Of a stretch of DNA of 64,000 nt, positions 1 through 9,818 are shown one piece after another. Both the position numbers and the translations under genes were made by a program. A model generated the notes under the pieces. The model had not been told where the DNA came from. It did not search any database and saw only the letters and a program-made list of their open reading frames with translations. How positions within the stretch are numbered: position 1 is the stretch's first letter; each line of letters opens with the position of its first letter. Origin of the DNA: a virus (taxonomy: Duplodnaviria; Heunggongvirae; Uroviricota; Caudoviricetes). The stretch is from the IMG/VR virus record IMGVR_UViG_2721755721_000001, one strand, 5' to 3'.

Positions 1-384
1 TTATGCGCGTGGATATACTTTCCGGCTAATTCTGCAGCTTTCTGCGGCAAAAGTGCATTTTCGCTTTCCTGAGCCGCCAGCAGCTCATCAAAATCCTCAA
101 GCGTTTCTCGTCCCAGCGCAATTTCCGTGCGCAGTTTTTTCATTTCCTTTGAGACCACGCCCTGACTTTCACGAAACAGCGTGCGCCACTCCTCATTCAG
201 TGTGTTCGTCGTGGCTTCCATTTCAGCGCGACGCTGGCGGATTGTCGCAATATTATCCGCTGCCGCTTTCTGCTGACGACGTGCTTCAAGCCATGCGTTT
301 CTGGCTGTGTTCATGGTTTCCAGTGCCCGCTGCGTTACAGCCGGAAAAGTGGAAAGGTTGTTATTTACTGCGGTATTGTTCATG
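1..384 (-). CDS. hypothetical coiled-coil protein (127 aa) downstream of primase and ori
   Basis: Not in ORF track (window edge). ATG at 382-384 (minus) preceded by AGGAG; stop at 1-3; translation MNNTAVNNNLSTFPAVTQRALE... Confidence 0.5.
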
Positions 385-559
385 ACTTCTCCTGTCGGGT
401 TGGTTCGTTACGTCAATTGTGTCGTGGCTGACACAAGCACACTATCGGTGCTCAGTGTGTGGTGGCTGGCACAACGGGCGCTTGCGGTTATTCAGACGTG
501 GCTATGAAAGCCAGCCAGATAAAAATGCCCTCTGTTTCAGTCTGCTTTATGTCCCTGAT

Positions 560-755
560 GCGGTGGAACAGGTGAAACATGTGTTACAGCTTTGTTTTAT
601 AAGGCATTTATATACACTGCACCGGTGGAACATCGCGGGTAACAAGGTGAAACAGCGGATTGGCTGGCGTTACATCTGTTCCACCTCACTATTTCAGAAG
701 GTGGAACAGGTTCAGCCCTGTAAAATACGGTTGTTCCACCTGTTTCACCTGTTAC
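560..755. repeat. Iteron cluster, about 8 copies of GGTG(G/A)AACA in both orientations; putative satellite replication origin
   Basis: Repeated ggtggaaca / ggtgaaaca and inverse tgttccacc / tgtttcacc in the 400-bp gap just downstream of the primase gene; P4 ori/crr lie at the equivalent position and carry short repeats bound by alpha. Confidence 0.6.
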
Positions 756-783
756 CCTTAATAAATAAGACTCACGCAAAGCC

Positions 784-3456
784 TTAACCCGGCACCTCGC
801 TGTTGAAGACATAGAGCCTGCGGGGATTCATCTCTGGCGGGCGAATGGTTGTCTGGAGTTTGCCATCAGTGGAGGGCAGCAGGTATCCACGATCTGCGCA
901 CAGACGCGCCACCTTGCGCGGGTCAAATCCCCTGCAGATTTCTTTCCAGCCGGACGGCATGACATAGAACGTAGTGACAGCTTCCGTGCCCTGCGCGGTA
1001 CTGCCTTTCTCCACCCTTCGCCAGCCCACCATATTGCCGGGGCGGTTGCGCTCGTCATACCAGTCTGCAAAGCGGCTGTACTGATTCGCGGTAAAGAAAC
1101 TGCGAACCTGCTCCAGTGCGGCGATATCTTCCTGATTGGCGGTGTGCCCGCGATCTTTCAGCCATGCGTTCAGGCAGACGCGGGTTGCCCGCAGTGCTTC
1201 ACCCTCAGGCCAGCCGGTGATACCCAGACGGGTTGCCAGTTCACCTGCCATCGCCACCAGTGCAAAGCGGTTCACAGCCCGGCCCACCTGATTGCCTGCA
1301 TCTTTCGGAGTCAGGGCGGCAGCATATTCCTTCATCAGCGATTTTGCCTGTGCCGTTAGTCCGTTAAGATCAGCGGTCAGTGCTTTCAGCCACTCCCGGA
1401 ACGGCGAACCGTAGTAGCAGGACGTGGCCCATTCAAGATGCTCTGCCAGAGCCTTGCCGCTGTCGAAGCCGTGCAGCTCCTCAAAAACGCCAAACTTCCC
1501 GGAATCGCTGGGGATCTGGATCATCCTGACTTCCATCCCGGCAAAAGTACGCTCACCGGCCTTTGCCGCATGTTCGGTCAGAGACAATTCGCCAGTTGAA
1601 AAGAACAACAGGCGCCACTGCTTACGGGTACGCAGCTCACCGTCCGTACCGGCACGGCCCTTGCCCTGACCGTTTGCCAGCATGTAGGCGATATTGCCTG
1701 CCTCGCGTCCGTCAACTTCCCGGATCTCATCAAGCATCATGGCGGCATCGTTGCGGCGGCTGGCGCATCCCTCCAGTGCGTTGCCGGTGGCCCGCCATGT
1801 CTGCCAGTAGTCAGGCCCGCCGCAGACGGAGGTTGCTGCTTTCATGGTGGTGGTCTTACCGTCTGTCGATTCCCCTTTGAGGTGGTAGCCGCCGCCGTCC
1901 ATACCAACCAGCCGTAACAGTGGTGCAGCAAAGGCCAGGCTGACAGCAAATGCCACGCGGGAGTTGCCGGTACAGTAGCGGGATACATGCTCCCGCCATT
2001 CCTCTGTTGTGCCCGACACGCGGAAATCACGCCCCTGCACGGAAGTGGTCTGGAGAATGACACCCTCTGCACCTTCACCGCTGACCTCATCCTGCAGGAC
2101 GTAAACCTGACCATGCCAGCCAGTACGACTGACGCAGGTCACGCGGCGTTCCGGTTTACACAGTGAGATATATTCCATCAGGCGTGCGCGTGCCTCACCG
2201 GTGGTGCTGATATAAGACAGCCCGTTAACCAGCAGTACCCGGCGCAGTTCCTCACCACTGCCGCTCAGCATTTCCATCGGCATCGCCCAGCGGCGACACT
2301 CACCCCACGTATCTTCCCATTCCAGCAGTCGTCCGAAGTTACCGCCATCGGCATCGCAGGTGATTGCCGTCACGCGCAGCGGGCTGCATATTTTGACGTT
2401 CTGGATCTCCGTCTCACCGTTGCGCTGTACCTGCTTTTCATACCAGAGATATTCCTGGGTAAGACGGAACCCGTGCGGCAGTTGCGTGCGGCTTTCCCCG
2501 CAGAGTACCAGACCGTTGCGAAAGGCTTCACGGGCACGGGTAATACCGTGCTCCCGATGAAAGTCATTCCAGTCAGCCTTAATCTCTTCTGGTGGCAGCG
2601 TCATCCAGCCGCCAACAGCTTTTGCCGCCCGTTCAGCAAAGGCTCTGCCGGGATTCTCACCCCCGTCCTGAAAATCGTTATCACCGGCGATGATAATTTT
2701 TACCTCAGGCCAGCGTGCCCGCAGCGACTGCGCCACATTGGGCAGGTTGCCCGCAGATATGGCAGCCACTACGCATCCGGCAGTGAGCTGGCTTACCGTC
2801 AGCGCCGTAGCGTAACCTTCGGTAATCACCACCTGTATCGGTGGTTCAGACGGTAACGGGCTGAGCGACACAAACGCGCCTTTCATCGTGCTGCCGGGCA
2901 GTATGCTTTTTTCACCCGTCGGGGCGATAAGCTGTGCACCGGTCACGGCTCCGGTGTTGGTCGTGAGTGGTAACAGCAGGGAACCGGCAGGAAAATCCTT
3001 ACCGCTGATATGCTGTACGCTTCCGGTCAGAGAGGCCGGGTATCCGGCGAACCCTTTTCCTGTCAGATAGGCGCTTTCTCCCGTGTGGCTCTCTTTCATC
3101 AGCGCCGCCACGGTAAGACCCATGTCGCGTTTAGGGGCTTTTTGTCTGGCAGGCTTAACAGGCAGTTCCTGCATATCCGGCACATTAAGCACCTGCGCCA
3201 CCTCCTGCGCAGCCTTTCTGACGTTGTAACCGGTTACGAGCTTAACCAGATCCAGACCGTCACCATTGCCACACTGGCTGCAGATCCACGTCCCGCGCCC
3301 GTCAAGGTCATCAAGGCGAAAACGATCCTTGCCCCCACATTTCGGGCAGGGACCGTGCCTGCCGTTTTCAGGTACATCAATACGCAGCATCTGCAGAATA
3401 ACGGGCCATTTCCCCCGTGCGGCGGCTGAAACCTGCGTAACCGTCTGTATTGTCAT
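784..3456 (-). CDS. P4 alpha-like DNA primase-helicase (890 aa)
   Basis: N-terminal zinc finger CPKCGGKDRFR...CSQCG, TOPRIM-like ITEGYATALTV/IIIAGDND, Walker A GESTDGKTT in C-terminal helicase part. Confidence 0.85.
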   Translation of the reverse strand: MTIQTVTQVSAAARGKWPVILQMLRIDVPENGRHGPCPKCGGKDRFRLDDLDGRGTWICSQCGNGDGLDLVKLVTGYNVRKAAQEVAQVLNVPDMQELPVKPARQKAPKRDMGLTVAALMKESHTGESAYLTGKGFAGYPASLTGSVQHISGKDFPAGSLLLPLTTNTGAVTGAQLIAPTGEKSILPGSTMKGAFVSLSPLPSEPPIQVVITEGYATALTVSQLTAGCVVAAISAGNLPNVAQSLRARWPEVKIIIAGDNDFQDGGENPGRAFAERAAKAVGGWMTLPPEEIKADWNDFHREHGITRAREAFRNGLVLCGESRTQLPHGFRLTQEYLWYEKQVQRNGETEIQNVKICSPLRVTAITCDADGGNFGRLLEWEDTWGECRRWAMPMEMLSGSGEELRRVLLVNGLSYISTTGEARARLMEYISLCKPERRVTCVSRTGWHGQVYVLQDEVSGEGAEGVILQTTSVQGRDFRVSGTTEEWREHVSRYCTGNSRVAFAVSLAFAAPLLRLVGMDGGGYHLKGESTDGKTTTMKAATSVCGGPDYWQTWRATGNALEGCASRRNDAAMMLDEIREVDGREAGNIAYMLANGQGKGRAGTDGELRTRKQWRLLFFSTGELSLTEHAAKAGERTFAGMEVRMIQIPSDSGKFGVFEELHGFDSGKALAEHLEWATSCYYGSPFREWLKALTADLNGLTAQAKSLMKEYAAALTPKDAGNQVGRAVNRFALVAMAGELATRLGITGWPEGEALRATRVCLNAWLKDRGHTANQEDIAALEQVRSFFTANQYSRFADWYDERNRPGNMVGWRRVEKGSTAQGTEAVTTFYVMPSGWKEICRGFDPRKVARLCADRGYLLPSTDGKLQTTIRPPEMNPRRLYVFNSEVPG

Positions 3457-3836
3457 ACTTCCCCCTCATACAACGTCACACCGGTACTGCAGAAGTCATC
3501 AAATGCCGCCGGAAGCGTGCGGTACATCTCCGCCATCACTTCACAGCCGCGCGCGGTCAGTACCGGCGGCGCGGTCAGCAGTGACGGCTCCAGCATGTCA
3601 GTCAGCAGTGCCAGCGCGGCAGCGGCGCCCTGCACTTCGCCGTACTCGTTAATCAGTACGCACTCGATATGCAGCGCAATGGCCATTTCAATACGCTCCA
3701 CCGTCAGGCTGTGCGGACCATACTGATCACTGCCAGTTTCGTTCAGCATTTTCTGCCGCCATGCTGAAGCAATAGCCCGCCGGTAAAGCGCGGTGGTCAT
3801 TTCTACCGGGAAAATGGAAACCTGCGGCTGGTTCAT
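3453..3836 (-). CDS. hypothetical protein (127 aa), satellite early operon
   Basis: ORF overlaps the primase start by 4 bp (translational coupling). Confidence 0.5.
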   Translation of the reverse strand: MNQPQVSIFPVEMTTALYRRAIASAWRQKMLNETGSDQYGPHSLTVERIEMAIALHIECVLINEYGEVQGAAAALALLTDMLEPSLLTAPPVLTARGCEVMAEMYRTLPAAFDDFCSTGVTLYEGEV

Positions 3837-4117
3837 CTGGCACCTCCTTCAATCAGTGCGCAGCTGTGTGCAATATCCGTCAAATCTGCCAGCAGGTACT
3901 CCATCAGCGCGGCGACACCAGGCGCACAGCCTGCGTCCAGTGCTCCGGCCTGAGACGGGTATTCAGAAAAGAGAAGCTGGAGCATGTCGCAGGCATTTCT
4001 TGCGCGGGTCAGCTTTCCGAAACTGTCCTCTGACAACCCATAGGCAAAAGCACCGGTATTGTGTTTTTCAGGCAAAGTGTGGCCCTGAGCACCGTTGTGC
4101 CCGTTTGAAATATTCAT
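3833..4117 (-). CDS. hypothetical protein (94 aa)
   Basis: ORF overlaps downstream gene by 4 bp, same operon. Confidence 0.45.
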   Translation of the reverse strand: MNISNGHNGAQGHTLPEKHNTGAFAYGLSEDSFGKLTRARNACDMLQLLFSEYPSQAGALDAGCAPGVAALMEYLLADLTDIAHSCALIEGGAR

Positions 4118-4148
4118 CGTGGATTACTCCGTTTTCAGCGGTATTTTG

Positions 4149-4538
4149 TCAGAGAAACTTTGAATAGTGACCGTCGTCAGGCTCAGCAGAACGCCGTATG
4201 CTACGCTCCCGCCAGCGGATAAATAGCACAGACGGATGCAGTGTCAGCGGGCCGGAACCACTACCGCCAGCAGGAGCTGGTGCAGGCTTCAAGAGCGGTA
4301 CATCAAACAGGCGCGTATACCGCTGTTCAAACCATGCCAGAGGGCAGGAAGAAAGCTTGTTGTCGCTGTCATGACGTATCAGCACTTCACAGCTGAATTC
4401 AGGATTAACCAGCGCCACAGAGGGCGAGGCTTCTATTAATCGGATAATCGTGACCGTCCAGCCACGTTCATGCTGCCAGCGTTCGCCGGGGTGCGGATAA
4501 TTACGCATGTTCACCTCCGCAGGGAATGCGCCCGGCAA
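4149..4538 (-). CDS. hypothetical protein (about 120-129 aa, start uncertain)
   Basis: ORF in operon orientation; overlaps the Icd-like gene. Confidence 0.4.
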   Translation of the reverse strand: MPGAFPAEVNMRNYPHPGERWQHERGWTVTIIRLIEASPSVALVNPEFSCEVLIRHDSDNKLSSCPLAWFEQRYTRLFDVPLLKPAPAPAGGSGSGPLTLHPSVLFIRWRERSIRRSAEPDDGHYSKFL

Positions 4539-4677
4539 AGCTCAGTACATAGTCCGGGGCAAGTCTGCGCCGCGCTGATCGTTCGTTATCTGCGGTGATC
4601 CTTAACATCACAGGACGGGCATTGCGTTGACTGCGGTTGATCGCCGCAAATAACCAGGTACACTTCTGTTTAGCCAT
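4501..4677 (-). CDS. Icd-like cell-division-inhibitor family small protein
   Basis: MAKQKCTWLFAAINRSQRNARPVMLRITADNERSARRRLAPDY... resembles P4-family Icd-like proteins; start placed at the internal MAKQK. Confidence 0.55.
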   Translation of the reverse strand: MAKQKCTWLFAAINRSQRNARPVMLRITADNERSARRRLAPDYVLSFAGRIPCGGEHA

Positions 4678-4793
4678 CTTCGTTACCTCATATAACGTGC
4701 TGGTCAGACGCCTCGGTGCTGCTGCAAACACTCCGGGGCGTTGCTATTTTGTTTTTCTGTGTGTAATGTGTCATTACACATAAATACATTACA

Positions 4794-4988
4794 ATGGGTG
4801 TAATTGACGTGTCAACACACAAAAATGAAAGACGTGGGAATCCGCCATTCCAGTTCCGACTTGACCCTGAACTGCGTGAACTGATGGAACAAGCACAACA
4901 GCAGGATGGCGATGAATCGCTAGCGGCTTGGATCAAGCGCATTCTACGCAAAGAGTTACAAAGCCGAGGTTTAGAACCAAAGAATTGA
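4794..4988 (+). CDS. small hypothetical protein (64 aa), divergent from the early operon
   Basis: ORF only; basic C-terminus. Confidence 0.3.
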   Translation: MGVIDVSTHKNERRGNPPFQFRLDPELRELMEQAQQQDGDESLAAWIKRILRKELQSRGLEPKN

Positions 4989-5037
4989 TTAATACGTTGG
5001 GGAGGCTTTTTTCTCCCCAGCTTTGTTAATATTGTCA

Positions 5038-5253
5038 TTACACTACTTCCTCCAATCCTGCTGATTGAGCTTTAACCCACTGCCTAATTTCTTGTGCATC
5101 GTAAACAGATACCCGTTTTGAAATGCGTATAGATTTGGGAAATTCAGGATTGTTCTTTTCCCAGCGCCAGAGAGTAACCGTACTTATTTGCAAAAAGTCA
5201 GCAGTAGCTCGTGGGCGGGCATGTCCAGTGATAGGATAAGTTTTTAATGTCAT
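5038..5253 (-). CDS. alpA: AlpA-family phage regulatory protein (HTH)
   Basis: MTLKTYPITGHARPRATADFLQISTVTLWRWEKNNPEFPKSIRISKRVSVYDAQEIRQWV - typical AlpA/Vis-type HTH. Confidence 0.8.
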   Translation of the reverse strand: MTLKTYPITGHARPRATADFLQISTVTLWRWEKNNPEFPKSIRISKRVSVYDAQEIRQWVKAQSAGLEEVV

Positions 5254-5355
5254 GAAATTACCTGCCGTATTATGTAATGAACACGGCAGATACTATGGGG
5301 ATATCAAAATGCTGTGAAGGTAGTGTAATCAACTCTACCTGTAGATTGTTTCAGT

Positions 5356-6237
5356 CTACCCCTTTTGTTTTAATCCCGCATGATTAACCGCTAATCGTAA
5401 TTTTCTTAAGATTTCTTGTTCATTAGTGATAAATATTGGAGGTAGCTCTCCTAAATGTTTAATTATGGCGTTAGTCCACTTTTCAGGACTTATCTCTTTT
5501 CTTTCACCACGACATTCGCTTGGGTATTTTGCTAATATATATATGGCTGCATTTAATAACCCCTCCCTATTTTTTGCATGATGCTCAGCAGTGTTATTTA
5601 ATCGCTTGGGGATTTTAGGTTCAGATGAAATTCTTTTCGTAAGTAAACTTGGCATAGGAATTCCAGTTTTTACTGATTTCCATATTAACTCTAAATCTCT
5701 TCGCATGATAAGAAGATCTTCAAATGGAATCTTAATTACCTTATTTCCTTCATATGAGGCCGTTGCCATCAAAACATTATCTCGTATTTTTACCGGTTTA
5801 AGCCTGAATTCATAATCTGGATCTATAGCTAATCCATTTTTTATGTCACTTATCATATCATCGGCGTACCAAATACCACAGGCAAATCCTATAATTTGAA
5901 GCCCATTTTCAAAATGTTCAAAGGAATCATCTTTAAGGTCATACCATATTGTTGAAAATTCCATCTCTAGTGATTGATTAGTTAATACGGGATGAATTAA
6001 GTCAATTTCCATTTTCTGATTTTTATTGAGGAAATTAACATTAAATCTAACTGCAAGTCCATCCGCCTTGAATGCGATATTAAAAGCGCCTATTTCGTAT
6101 AGATGTAATAAATCATCAATCTCGCATTCTAATAGTCTTGAAGCGCGTTCAAATGAACAATATTCTAATGGTGGTATTTTTTTGTCAATCCATAGATTTC
6201 CTAAGAATATAGTTTCATTCTCTGTTGAATGCTGCAT
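5356..6237 (-). CDS. hypothetical AT-rich cargo protein (293 aa) between integrase and alpA
   Basis: Long ORF with AGAGG Shine-Dalgarno; markedly AT-rich versus flanks; no motif recognised. Confidence 0.65.
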   Translation of the reverse strand: MQHSTENETIFLGNLWIDKKIPPLEYCSFERASRLLECEIDDLLHLYEIGAFNIAFKADGLAVRFNVNFLNKNQKMEIDLIHPVLTNQSLEMEFSTIWYDLKDDSFEHFENGLQIIGFACGIWYADDMISDIKNGLAIDPDYEFRLKPVKIRDNVLMATASYEGNKVIKIPFEDLLIMRRDLELIWKSVKTGIPMPSLLTKRISSEPKIPKRLNNTAEHHAKNREGLLNAAIYILAKYPSECRGERKEISPEKWTNAIIKHLGELPPIFITNEQEILRKLRLAVNHAGLKQKG

Positions 6238-6267
6238 TATGACCTCTGTTTTAAATTATAAGAGTAT

Positions 6268-7554
6268 TTAATTGATAATGTTAATACCTGATAAGTCATA
6301 AGGAGCATGGAATTCGTCCTTATTTAGTTCCAGATAATTAGACCACCATTGCATCATTCTGCGGCGTTCCTGCATGTGCTGCGCAAGATGCACATATGCT
6401 GCCCGCACTTCGTTTCTTTCTTGGTGACTCATCTGCCGTTCAACTGCATCGCGTGACCAGAGTCCTGATTCGGTCAGTGCAGAGCAGGCCATCGCCCTGA
6501 ACCCATGCAAGCAAACATCAGTTTGAGTGTCGTAACCCATCGTTCGCAGTGCTTTATTAACTGTGTTTTCGCTCATCGGTTTATATGGGTTGCTGTCACC
6601 GGGAAAAACCAGCAGATATTCACCACTGATTTTCCTTATATCCTCCAGTACCCCGATAGCCTGACTAGATAGCGGGACATAATGAGCAGCCCCCATCTTT
6701 GCACCCCGATCTGAGAATTTAACCCCTGCGATCTCTTCACGTTGTCCTGGTATCGTCCATAGCCCATTTTCAATGTCGATCTCCTCCCATCTGGCATGTC
6801 GTAGTTCGCTGGATCGCACAAAAGTGTGCAGGGAAAAGAGAACTGCTAGGCGAGTCAATGGTCTTCCCGTGTAACTTCTCGTTTTCGCTAACAGTTCAGG
6901 TAAACGTTCGAGAGGTAGTGCGGGGCGATGTCGTACTTTGGGGGCCGTAATTGCACCTTTTAGATCGTGGGCAGGGTTGTAATCGACAATTCCACGTTGC
7001 ACGGCATAACGGAAGATGCTCGTCATAGTGGTTTTTACACGGCTCGTTGTGGCACCAATTCCTTTCTCAGTCATCTCAACCAGCATCGGCATCAAGTCAC
7101 GGGTTTTGAGCGTATCGATAGGCTTTGAACCGATGGCAGGAAAGAGGTGGTTTTCCATTTCTCGGAGAATTTTTTTACGGGTGATCTCTTTCCACTCAGG
7201 ATGCCCCATCGTTCCACTATGCCACTCTCTGGCAACACTCTCGAACGTGGGGGAAATTGGGTCTTCCTTTTTGGGTTTCTTTGCTTCGCGAGGATCACGA
7301 CCATCGGCTAGTAGTTGCCTGGCTTCATCACGCCGTTTCCGCGCTGTTGCAAGTGAGACATCTGGGTAGACCCCTAATGCCAATGTCACTTGTTTTCCAT
7401 CAAAACGATAATTCATACGCCAGTATTTTCCACCAGTCTTTCGTACCAGTAGATACAAACTCCCTCCATCGGTAAGTTTGTAATCATTGGTCTTCGGCTT
7501 GGCGTTTTCTATCTGTTTGGGGGAAAGCACATTAATGGCCATATCTGTACTCAT
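6268..7554 (-). CDS. int: P4-type tyrosine integrase (start uncertain, ORF extends to 7602)
   Basis: N-terminus LSPKQIENAKPKTNDYKLTDGGSLYLLVRKTGGKYWRMNYR typical of P4-family integrases; C-terminal catalytic region with HGFR...Y. Confidence 0.85.
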   Translation of the reverse strand: MSTDMAINVLSPKQIENAKPKTNDYKLTDGGSLYLLVRKTGGKYWRMNYRFDGKQVTLALGVYPDVSLATARKRRDEARQLLADGRDPREAKKPKKEDPISPTFESVAREWHSGTMGHPEWKEITRKKILREMENHLFPAIGSKPIDTLKTRDLMPMLVEMTEKGIGATTSRVKTTMTSIFRYAVQRGIVDYNPAHDLKGAITAPKVRHRPALPLERLPELLAKTRSYTGRPLTRLAVLFSLHTFVRSSELRHARWEEIDIENGLWTIPGQREEIAGVKFSDRGAKMGAAHYVPLSSQAIGVLEDIRKISGEYLLVFPGDSNPYKPMSENTVNKALRTMGYDTQTDVCLHGFRAMACSALTESGLWSRDAVERQMSHQERNEVRAAYVHLAQHMQERRRMMQWWSNYLELNKDEFHAPYDLSGINIIN

Positions 7555-7814
7555 TTTGGTAAATTGATGGTATCTGCATATCGAACTGGGGAATACCATC
7601 ACTTATACCATCACGAGGTTGTAATGTCATGAAATTAACTGAAATGAAAATCAGGCCGATTCGGTGATAACTTACTGTTTTTTTAAGTGGTTATGTAATG
7701 AAGTGAAATGTAGAGAAAGGTCTTTAAAGTGTCCCCTGCAGACATCTACTTGAGGCAGCAGGGGATTGATTGGAATGGTGTTTTTTAGGTGTGAGAAATA
7801 TTTTACCCGCTATT

Positions 7815-8015
7815 TTACCCATTGGCGCGGCTTAAGAGCTTATTTTTGAATTCACAATGGTCACGATATAACCATCTTGCTCGACCGTGGATAACTTTGG
7901 CTTTTGGCAGGTCGCCGGACTTAATCCGGTCGTAGATGAAGGTTTTACCAAAGCCAGTATCGGCCATGATGAATTTCAAATCAACCAGTGAATCAGGTTG
8001 TAGTTCGTGTTGCAT
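7815..8015 (-). CDS. xis: excisionase / AlpA-like HTH DNA-binding protein (66 aa)
   Basis: Small basic HTH protein directly upstream of the integrase, GGAGA Shine-Dalgarno. Confidence 0.6.
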   Translation of the reverse strand: MQHELQPDSLVDLKFIMADTGFGKTFIYDRIKSGDLPKAKVIHGRARWLYRDHCEFKNKLLSRANG

Positions 8016-8057
8016 GAGTGCTATCTCCGAATAGGGAATCGAACCTGCAAATCAGGC

Positions 8058-8090
8058 AAGAAAAAACCGCCATCAGGCGGCTTGGTGTTC
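8058..8090 (-). terminator. rho-independent terminator (minus strand)
   Basis: Minus-strand GCCGCCTGATGGCGG hairpin followed by a T-run. Confidence 0.5.
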
Positions 8091-8146
8091 TTTCAGTTCT
8101 TCAATTCGAATATTGGTTACATTGTTTTCATATATGAATAAATAAA

Positions 8147-8359
8147 TTAGCTTTTTTCGTTGCCTTCGCGTTCTTTATTAATTTTGACAAAATCGTTTTT
8201 ACCACGCTCTCCAAATGCGTCTTTAGAGTCGTTGTATCCGCAATCGCAGCACACATAATCATCAGACCATCCACGCATTGTTTTTTCTTTTGCAATATTT
8301 CCAGAACCGCATTTTGGACAAGACATATCACTACCTCCAAAGCATGAGAGAGATGACAA
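8147..8359 (-). CDS. zinc-ribbon small protein (70 aa)
   Basis: CPKCGSG...CCDCG paired Cys motifs. Confidence 0.5.
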   Translation of the reverse strand: MSSLSCFGGSDMSCPKCGSGNIAKEKTMRGWSDDYVCCDCGYNDSKDAFGERGKNDFVKINKEREGNEKS

Positions 8360-8422
8360 CGTAACATTGATTGGAGATTAACAATAGATTGCTGATGTAA
8401 AAGATATGTATAAGCTTAGCTA

Positions 8423-8797
8423 TCAAAGGGGAGGCTCTGGTAGCGGCATCCAGTGTGACGGTTTCCACGACGCACCAGGAATTATCCACCCATCATTAGC
8501 GTCAGGATGCCCCGGGATGTAAGTCGCCCATTTCATTCGCCAGTCACCTTTCCTGTCAAACTCCCTGGCAACAAGAACGGCTGTTTTGGTATCCGGCATT
8601 CGCTCACTACAGCTTATCCAACCATCAGGAGTTACCGGAGAGTTGCCGGGTTCTTTAATGTGCAAGCGAGGCTCACCATCTTTTGGCTCAGGCCACTGGC
8701 GCTCCATGTTGATCTTCAATTTATCTTCCATAGCAGCGGTAATTTCAGCATCGCTGATGCCAGCACGGCGCTGTGCATCCCACAACAGGAAATGCAT
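8423..8797 (-). CDS. lambdoid early-left hypothetical protein (DUF551-like)
   Basis: ORF in the early-left operon; separated in-frame from the upstream ORF by a single TAG. Confidence 0.5.
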   Translation of the reverse strand: MHFLLWDAQRRAGISDAEITAAMEDKLKINMERQWPEPKDGEPRLHIKEPGNSPVTPDGWISCSERMPDTKTAVLVAREFDRKGDWRMKWATYIPGHPDANDGWIIPGASWKPSHWMPLPEPPL

Positions 8798-8806
8798 ATC
8801 AGCCCA

Positions 8807-9052
8807 CTAGCTGAGATCGTCTGGTTCGGCTGCGGCTTCCAGAGCCTCTTTTGAGAGGTGTTTCAGTGGACCAATGGGGCCAACGCAGCCAAATGTGGAG
8901 TCAGACCATTTGGCATGCTCGTGGCGAATCAGTTCGCGTTCCAGTGATGCCAGTGCAATTCGTGCCAGTTCCATTTGTTCGCCACGAGTAAGCCCGTTTT
9001 CAAGCGGATTTTTAATGAACAATTCAATACGTTCTTTGGTAATAGTGGTCAT
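8807..9052 (-). CDS. hypothetical protein (81 aa)
   Basis: ORF in the early-left operon. Confidence 0.4.
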   Translation of the reverse strand: MTTITKERIELFIKNPLENGLTRGEQMELARIALASLERELIRHEHAKWSDSTFGCVGPIGPLKHLSKEALEAAAEPDDLS

Positions 9053-9062
9053 TTGTTAGTCC

Positions 9063-9818
9063 TTAAACTGCTAGTTGCAATTGCATTTCAAAGCGGTCGC
9101 GTTGTTCACAATACGCAAGAGAACCAGGGCTATTGTGTGCCTCAATCCGTTCTACCATTAATGCTGCGCGTGTCTCTTTACTTGCAGGTGCATAAGCCCC
9201 AGACCAGGCTTTATCAATACCGATGTTTCGAGCGACGTTCGTACTATCTGCGCTGGCTAAGGGTAATTTTGTGAATATCAGCGGATTTAACATGCGCAAT
9301 CCATGTAGTTTCGTAACCGGCTGACCATGCCCATCAACAATGTGACGAATCAGGTCTTTCATTCTGGCTACCGCAAGAGTTGGGCGCTTTACGTCATAGT
9401 CGCCACAACTACCGATAGCCACTCGCGGAAACTCATTGCACAAATGAATAAATCGCGCGTCACTTTCATTCATGTGCCACACTGGAACGCCAGCTAGTTT
9501 TCCGTGAGGCCACTCATTCAGAAGCGCATCATTTTCCTCCTCTCCGCCATCAATAATATCCGGGATAATGGCAAAATCGAATCCTGGGTGATTCTTCCAG
9601 CGAGCAACAAACTCGTAGTAATCGCTCCAGTCGATTTTGTTTTTGCCAGCTGCTTTCCAGGCGGTGAATGCACCGTTGTCCAGCGCGAACGACTGACAGT
9701 ATTCAGCCGCGAGATTGATCTGGCCTGAATGCGCAAAACTGATAAACGCATGTCGCCCTTTCCATGCTCTCATTGCGCACGTATCAGGAGTAATAGGCCC
9801 ACCGTGGTAGTGAATCAT
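9063..9818 (-). CDS. hypothetical protein (251 aa); weak, unverified resemblance to TGT/DpdA-like transglycosylases
   Basis: Start at MIHYHGG with AAGGAG Shine-Dalgarno, coupled to the upstream stop; DNGAF motif. Confidence 0.55.
   Translation of the reverse strand: MIHYHGGPITPDTCAMRAWKGRHAFISFAHSGQINLAAEYCQSFALDNGAFTAWKAAGKNKIDWSDYYEFVARWKNHPGFDFAIIPDIIDGGEEENDALLNEWPHGKLAGVPVWHMNESDARFIHLCNEFPRVAIGSCGDYDVKRPTLAVARMKDLIRHIVDGHGQPVTKLHGLRMLNPLIFTKLPLASADSTNVARNIGIDKAWSGAYAPASKETRAALMVERIEAHNSPGSLAYCEQRDRFEMQLQLAV

Follow-up and report, generated by a model that had tools for sequence, protein, structure and literature searches.

A candidate iteron origin of replication beside the DUF927 primase-helicase gene of a P4-like phage satellite

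Positions 562-758 of the window (the whole 64,000-nt stretch of viral DNA analyzed here) very probably constitute the cognate replication origin of the DUF927 initiator-helicase, which is encoded next to them in a P4-like phage satellite. We based this assignment, made from sequence comparison and by analogy with known replicons, on the clustering of 9-bp iterons in this region, the retention of their position despite words that differ between lineages, their linkage to only the helicase half of the protein, and the kinship of that half with the Rep proteins of staphylococcal pathogenicity islands (SaPIs). The best reading of the module as a whole is a Rep-plus-iteron origin of the SaPI/PICI type, fused to a P4-type primase and residing inside a P4-like satellite. 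An iteron origin beside an initiator gene is an ordinary and expected feature of a satellite; in the searchable literature, we came across no account of where the Toprim-DUF927 replicons of enterobacterial satellites have their origin. The analysis places a probable origin in a widespread family of enterobacterial satellites, with sister modules in ST131 and in other genera.

The satellite, its intergenic gap and the iteron cluster

The gap that follows the primase-helicase gene is 100% identical to a stretch of Escherichia coli Z1322HEC0003. Of 5426 complete E. coli genomes, 326 contain it at an identity of at least 90%, and it is annotated in none of them. The gene order in E. coli Z1322HEC0003 is integrase, a hypothetical gene, AlpA, an Icd-like gene, three small genes (one of them DUF5375), primase-helicase, the gap, a Sid homologue, Psu, an Ogr/Delta-like protein and two unannotated genes. 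This locus contains the gene set of a P4-like satellite (sid, psu, delta, an alpA-type regulator, an integrase and a primase/replicase), and its Sid homologue shares 24% identity with P4 Sid (E 1e-12) and matches phrog_6165, the Sid/Psu PHROG. Therefore, as judged from the gene set and the Sid homology, the element is a P4-like phage satellite of 11-12 kb in an E. coli-type chromosome.

The satellite (window 1-7542; locus L001 7300-19400) has a PICI-like one-directional layout, unlike P4, and includes orf293 after int. The sole plus-strand gene in this otherwise one-directional element is a 64-aa ORF at window 4794-4988 (+), a RefSeq hypothetical located between alpA and the icd-like gene, which might regulate the early operon. 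What follows delta differs between elements: this slot contains two unannotated proteins without PHROG matches in this element (L001 8377-9946), a retron St85 effector in E. coli AMSCJX03 (L048 1-811), and sce7725/sce7726 in the ST131 element (L042 3774-5627), and it looks like a defence hotspot. The integrase end of the satellite is adjoined by a lambdoid prophage (from window position ~7815 on; L001 19432-24400), which starts with torI, followed by anti-RecBCD, ERF, kil and cIII genes. The other flank of the satellite and prophage contains a dsdX remnant and the csc sucrose genes, and the arrangement suggests a tandem insertion of the two elements at the argW/dsd region.

The gap comprises 400 bp (384-783), from the stop of the primase-helicase gene to the ATG, at position 383, of the next gene on the minus strand. 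According to the preliminary description, repeats fill this gap; the iterons in fact take only its primase-proximal half (562-758), and the other half holds a Psid-like promoter. The promoter region (418-473) contains two TGT-N12-ACA dyads that are strictly kept among close relatives, the proximal one being 35 nt upstream of the sid ATG. As late promoters that depend on Ogr/Delta have the consensus TGT-N12-ACA (PMC3931495), this region is a predicted Psid-like late promoter of the Delta/Ogr type for sid-psu-delta. Between the promoter and the iterons, we found a conserved box, TTTTTATCTGGCTGGC, of the general form TYTGGNNGGC after a T-run. The box is located 265-281 nt past the helicase stop in all Enterobacterales relatives (L003-L025 and L042), regardless of the next gene; it sits outside the iteron cluster, beyond the last iteron at a constant distance. 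In the gap itself there are no DnaA boxes, and neither a sigma-70 consensus promoter nor an intrinsic terminator was called there; no RNA families from Rfam were detected in positions 1-9000 of the window. Two ORFs that overlap the gap, at 419-787 (+) and 597-812 (-), were judged non-coding because relatives show 1-bp indels there.

The iteron cluster contains eight exact copies of GGTGRAACA within 188 bp (562-749), of which five are on the plus strand (starting at 562, 571, 624, 646 and 700) and three on the minus strand (677, 732 and 741). The preliminary description, which had counted about eight copies of GGTG(G/A)AACA in direct and inverted orientation, was accurate in this respect. It had also proposed motif counting against a shuffled background: the entire 64-kb window contains 10 copies versus 1.42 expected, and none of 100 shuffles reached 10. 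A repeat search also recovered the direct and inverted families and reported the tandem doublets 562-579 and 732-749 as an 18-nt inverted pair. Together with the exact copies, which occur on both strands, there are four degenerate iterons (580-588, 636-644, 668-676 and 750-758), and relatives have full iterons at the same places.

Counting from the primase-helicase stop, the order of elements in the window is a triple, an inverted single, a doublet, an inverted triple, the AT-rich spacer and an inverted triple. The stop is separated from the first iteron by 26 nt (758 versus 784). The G+C content of the gap has its minimum, 0.30-0.33 in 40-nt windows, at 570-619, and iterons lie on either side of the AT-rich region (562-588 versus 624-758). 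The iterons directly flanking the spacer (562-579 and 624-654) are oriented in the same direction. Opposed iterons are found at 732-758, the primase-proximal triple being inverted with respect to 562-579, and also at 677-685; they are more distant from the spacer, on the side of 624-654. The coordinates of all features are given in Table 1.

Table 1. Features of the replication module and the adjacent sid region (window coordinates)
Feature	Position	Strand	Remarks
sid homologue (capsid-size determination gene), 5' part	1..383	-	leaves the window; identified from the annotation of the identical E. coli locus
Psid-like late promoter (predicted)	418..473	-	two TGT-N12-ACA dyads, 456-473 and 418-435, 38 bp apart
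Conserved box TTTTTATCTGGCTGGC	510..525	-	general form TYTGGNNGGC after T-run
Tandem exact iterons GGTGGAACA and GGTGAAACA (GGTGAACA-like)	562..579	+	9-bp spacing; sid-proximal arm; in all same-class relatives
Degenerate iteron TGTGTTACA	580..588	+	third of the sid-proximal triple; third copy here in relatives
AT-rich spacer, candidate DNA-unwinding region	589..623		low G+C; 35-50 bp AT-rich gap at the same place in relatives
Iterons GGTGGAACA (624-632) and GGTGAAACA (646-654)	624..654	+	degenerate CGGGTAACA (636-644) in between
Iteron GGTGGAACA (677-685), then degenerate GATGTAACG (668-676)	668..685	-	GATGTAACG is a full GGTGGAACG in relatives
Lone iteron GGTGGAACA	700..708	+	
Primase-proximal triple: AGGGTAACA (750-758), GGTGAAACA (741-749), GGTGGAACA (732-740)	732..758	-	AGGGTAACA degenerate
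Primase-helicase (putative initiator), 890 aa	784..3456	-	Zn-ribbon aa 32-68, Toprim aa 209-304, DUF927 helicase aa 330-612, Walker A motif (GKT) at ~aa 533-535
C-terminus of the primase-helicase			helical region and predicted winged helix at ~aa 834-890; SaPI Rep / SCCmec Cch-like

The primase-helicase and the cluster in related loci

The primase-helicase, named 'TOPRIM and DUF927 domain-containing protein' in RefSeq, has Pfam matches to Zn_Ribbon_Prim, Toprim_3 and DUF927. Its similarity to P4 alpha is limited to aa 5-322 (38% identity, E 2e-48 in BLASTP). Homology to the P4 protein across the whole length was rejected, as the BLASTP alignment ends at aa 322 and the Pfam architectures differ. 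The 'alpha primase' of the preliminary description is thus an appropriate name for the P4-alpha-like primase part of the protein, but not for the helicase and DNA-binding part, which is of the DUF927 / SaPI-Rep-like type. In a phmmer search against PDB sequences, the protein matched SaPIbov1 Rep (8tch, 4.6e-15) and SCCmec Cch (5dgk, 2.9e-13).

The 280-residue tail (aa 613-890) has no named Pfam domain; HTH_56, the 'Cch helix-turn-helix domain', gives a weak match in distant homologues of the tail only. The AlphaFold model that covers the C-terminal 251 residues (pLDDT 86) matches both 8tch and 5dgk over ~200 columns with E values from 1.4e-5 to 4e-4, the Foldseek match to 8tch having E 1.4e-5. 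The model of the last 100 residues (pLDDT 87, pTM 0.78) superimposes on the C-terminal domain of 8tch with a TM score of 0.64 and an rmsd of 2.9 A, the second-best fold match being to a winged-helix protein in complex with oriT DNA. The predicted secondary structure of the C-terminus consists of two helices and two wing strands. The origin-binding domain of P4 is outside the 50 best fold matches of the C-terminal model. By these sequence and model comparisons, the helicase half is a DUF927 helicase with a predicted C-terminal winged helix, homologous to SaPI Rep and Cch.

By scanning one genome per species, we identified 39 loci that encode relatives of the protein (36-99% identity), of which 38 have enough downstream sequence for analysis. 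In 29 of the 38, the commonest 8-mer within 320 bp after the stop is present in 5-11 copies; the same 8-mer has 0-2 copies in the remaining 5-8 kb of each locus, and shuffles give at most 2-5. The other nine loci contain no cluster within 320 bp, some of these genes being truncated and some clusters being located farther off. Enterobacterales relatives share a common layout, which comprises a triple, a single, a doublet, two to three inverted copies, the AT-rich spacer and an inverted triple. The placement of an iteron origin right after the primase-helicase gene, as proposed in the preliminary description, is strongly supported by the presence of the cluster in 29 of 38 related loci and its tie to the helicase half; the question raised there of whether the repeats are conserved in related elements is answered in the affirmative by the same count and by the identical layout in Enterobacterales.

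The iteron word differs between lineages, and every copy in a locus switches together, as expected for sites that one co-evolving protein reads. The word GGTG(G/A)AACA occurs in Shigella, Citrobacter, Enterobacter and Pseudocitrobacter as well as in one copy from Pantoea stewartii; GGTGTAACA is found in other Pantoea, in Yersinia, in one Xenorhabdus and in Proteus terrae; cTGGTAACA in other Xenorhabdus, among them X. anantnagensis; and GGGTAACA in Proteus vulgaris. More distant proteobacterial genomes possess the words TGGGGACA, GGTGTTACA, GGGGAACC and GCGTTACAG. Among eight sequences of the same class, variable columns amount to 5 of 72 in the iterons versus 33 of 117 in the spacers (Fisher p = 3e-4), and the changes within iterons are mostly the tolerated G/A at position 5. 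The iterons are also retained in a 92%-identical E. coli variant.

The genomic context of the cluster is variable. The gene 3' of it can be sid, delta or an unrelated gene, and the cluster persists in loci that lack upstream genes, several of which lack even the primase domain. All cluster-bearing loci have just one part in common, the helicase half (aa 323-890); neither sid nor the primase domain is shared by all of them. Two more E. coli island types (L042 and L043) have an iteron cluster after the DUF927 gene; one is located at argW in ST131 and contains delta and a P2-type capsid gene, and the other is located at ssrA. Copies of the primase-helicase gene in Shigella, Citrobacter, Enterobacter, Pseudocitrobacter and Pantoea have 97-99% identity, and such near-identical copies in five genera point to recent transfer.

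The same arrangement of helicase gene and cluster occurs in a PICI-like circular sequence of 12,152 bp that was deposited as a plasmid (NZ_CP148430.1, L047). It encodes an integrase, AntA/B, an Icd-like protein, Toprim-DUF927 and PerC. Directly after its helicase gene, three GTTGGTTCA iterons and three inverted copies flank an AT-rich stretch. It may represent a satellite that has been excised and replicates on its own. A Salmonella 'plasmid' of 6,989 bp, whose gene is 74% identical, was discounted as evidence for autonomous replication, being a linear contig from a fragmented assembly.

We compared closely related proteins that are associated with different words. Between Xenorhabdus BG5, which has GGTGTAACA, and four other Xenorhabdus, 5 of 10 differences in the helicase half fall into the last 57 residues (~1 expected); between Proteus terrae and P. 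vulgaris, 4 of 6 do so (~1 expected). The differing positions (846, 850, 866/867, 870, 883 and 887) are on the predicted recognition helix and wing, and Arg866 accompanies cTGGTAACA in two separate lineages. The C-terminal region also differs between some proteins with the same word (L003 versus L004, L008 versus L006). We therefore downgraded the C-terminal enrichment as proof of the reading head, since some same-iteron pairs are equally enriched, and the covariation is only suggestive of the winged helix as the reader of the iteron word because some same-word pairs also differ mostly in the C-terminal region.

It can be tentatively speculated, with more doubt than confidence, that the iteron word and the winged-helix head form a fast-switching specificity pair, in which a few substitutions (e.g. 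at 846, 866/867, 870 and 887) retarget the initiator. Retargeting would convert GGTGTAACA to cTGGTAACA or GGGTAACA, with all 8-12 iterons changing together. If true, such pairs would define incompatibility groups of replicons, with several satellites sharing one cell, and would provide a natural read-out of the DNA-recognition code in initiators of the SaPI-Rep type. Lineage-specific words combined with nearly identical proteins are in any case material for studying how these initiators read DNA.

Proposed function and alternative readings

From homology with SaPI Rep, we infer binding, melting, self-loading and priming as follows. The 890-aa protein would be produced once the early operon of the satellite turns on, and its C-terminal winged helix would recognize the 9-bp GGTG(G/A)AACA iterons. 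The putative origin would have tandem triples at both ends, inverted to each other, with singles and doublets between them. Multimers assembled on the iterons would open the 35-44-bp AT-rich spacer (~580-623), where the SaPI Rep / Cch-like DUF927 ring helicase would load itself, and the fused Toprim primase of the P4 type would make primers for the host polymerase. One cluster would thereby stand in for both P4 sites, ori and crr. The gene (784-3456) together with the gap (384-783) represents a candidate minimal replicon.

The position of the cluster could also be read by analogy with P4, which needs both ori and crr, the latter being the region right after alpha. The cluster would then be a crr-like, cis-acting accessory site (an enhancer, a copy-number or a handcuffing site) bound by the initiator, with replication starting elsewhere, and the conserved box at 510-525, outside the iterons, can be taken as a hint that the functional region extends further. 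We consider this reading quite unlikely: no second GGTGRAACA cluster, even with one mismatch allowed, was detected in the 24 kb around the element, and no second iteron cluster in any related locus; moreover, the cluster has an AT-rich spacer of its own, and SaPI and PICI replicons with such a helicase use one origin at this place (PMC9371898, PMC6092414). It is hardly credible that the repeats are operators of AlpA, Delta or another small protein, with a non-replicative role in the control of sid-psu-delta or in ending the early operon, although the cluster is located upstream of sid, beside the Delta-type promoter, and no intrinsic terminator was called between the primase-helicase gene and sid. 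A cluster follows the helicase gene also in loci without sid, psu, delta, alpA, DUF5375 and other upstream genes, and the motif of the Delta sites (TGT-N12-ACA) is distinct from the iterons and has another shape.

A cluster with the form of an origin could also be a fossil, in that replication has ceased in this copy or in the element as a whole. Chromosomal satellites are often defective, and neither a P4-type cos in the source locus nor a recognizable epsilon/ash homologue in the element was found, which leaves room for doubt. Nevertheless, the ORF of 890 aa is intact, 239 E. coli genomes have the gap at an identity of 99% or more, the gene is nearly identical across the five genera, and the iteron columns are more constrained than the spacers, so that a fossil origin seems very improbable. 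The intact gene, the constrained iterons and the near-identical copies favour a satellite copy that still replicates, in line with the replication competence suggested in the preliminary description.

Comparison with P4 and with SaPI and PICI replicons

In phage P4, crr (4291-4590) is located directly after alpha, and the ori repeats (9310-9413) are ~80-90 bp upstream of the Psid dyads, according to the P4 annotation. P4 alpha binds type 1 repeats, and all 11 of these octamers (GGTGAACA / TGTTCACC) are within ori and crr. The cluster of the satellite follows the primase-helicase gene as crr does, and it is situated 80-90 bp upstream of the Psid dyads as ori is. The alpha-type gene and sid are adjacent here; therefore the single gap holds the positions of both crr and ori. 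The preliminary description had equated this place with ori/crr of P4: the place does correspond to both sites, but there is one cluster instead of two regions 4.5 kb apart, and the exact P4 octamer GGTGAACA / TGTTCACC does not occur in 384-783. The words are nearly alike, GGTG(G/A)AACA having one extra base compared with GGTGAACA.

Further likenesses to P4 include the homologous Zn-ribbon/Toprim primase domain (38% identity, aa 5-322), the layout of Psid (P4 dyads at 9494-9511 and 9531-9548, ATG at 9583) and a similar TTTTCCTGGC box at 9462-9476 of P4, between the iterons and Psid. On the other hand, alpha combines a D5_N/DUF5906 helicase with a Pox_D5 domain for origin binding; according to Pfam, the present protein has neither of them. 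The gene order differs as well, as sid-delta-psu of P4 are divergent from the alpha operon, with the integrase located at the opposite end. A P4-type origin was rejected on the basis of the missing octamer, the single cluster and a DNA-binding domain of another family.

Iterons in SaPIs are recognized by the C-terminal winged helix of Rep, and some SaPIs, such as SaPI5, have the primase fused to Rep (PMC9371898). SaPI origins consist of 6-12 iterons immediately downstream of rep with an AT-rich region among them, at least two iterons being located on each side of this region in opposite directions (PMC9371898). The satellite resembles the SaPIs (SaPIbov1, SaPI1 and SaPI5) in the helicase core and the C-terminal domain, which are homologous by sequence and fold, and in the origin, which is located directly 3' of the initiator gene and consists of short iterons enclosing an AT-rich stretch. 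The iterons of SaPIs are 5-6 bp long, whereas those of the satellite have 9 bp. The AT-rich spacer of the satellite is off-centre with iterons of the same direction on both sides; thus, the geometry is not identical to that of SaPIs because the iterons directly flanking the spacer share direction. Also in contrast to SaPIs, the satellite has a fused Zn-ribbon/Toprim primase of the P4 type, a Gram-negative host and the P4 hijacking genes sid-psu-delta.

The PICIs of Gram-negative bacteria have the same organization, and the pri-rep-ori region from EcCICFT073 is a working replicon (PMC6092414). EcCICFT073 shares with the satellite the one-directional order of int, alpA, an icd-like gene, small genes, primase/initiator, origin and hijacking genes, as well as the location of iterons directly after the initiator gene. 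It differs in its iterons (GGTAGACAG) and in the presence of capsid genes in place of sid-psu-delta. The Pri-Rep protein of EcCICFT073 (L045 10241-12283, E. coli CFT073) has a helicase of the P4-alpha type, with D5_N, DUF5906 and Pox_D5. Since the P4-like satellite contains a helicase and an origin of the SaPI-Rep type and the model PICI EcCICFT073 the P4-alpha type, satellite families have evidently exchanged replication modules. By these sequence comparisons, the replication module of the satellite is nearer to those of staphylococcal pathogenicity islands than to that of P4.
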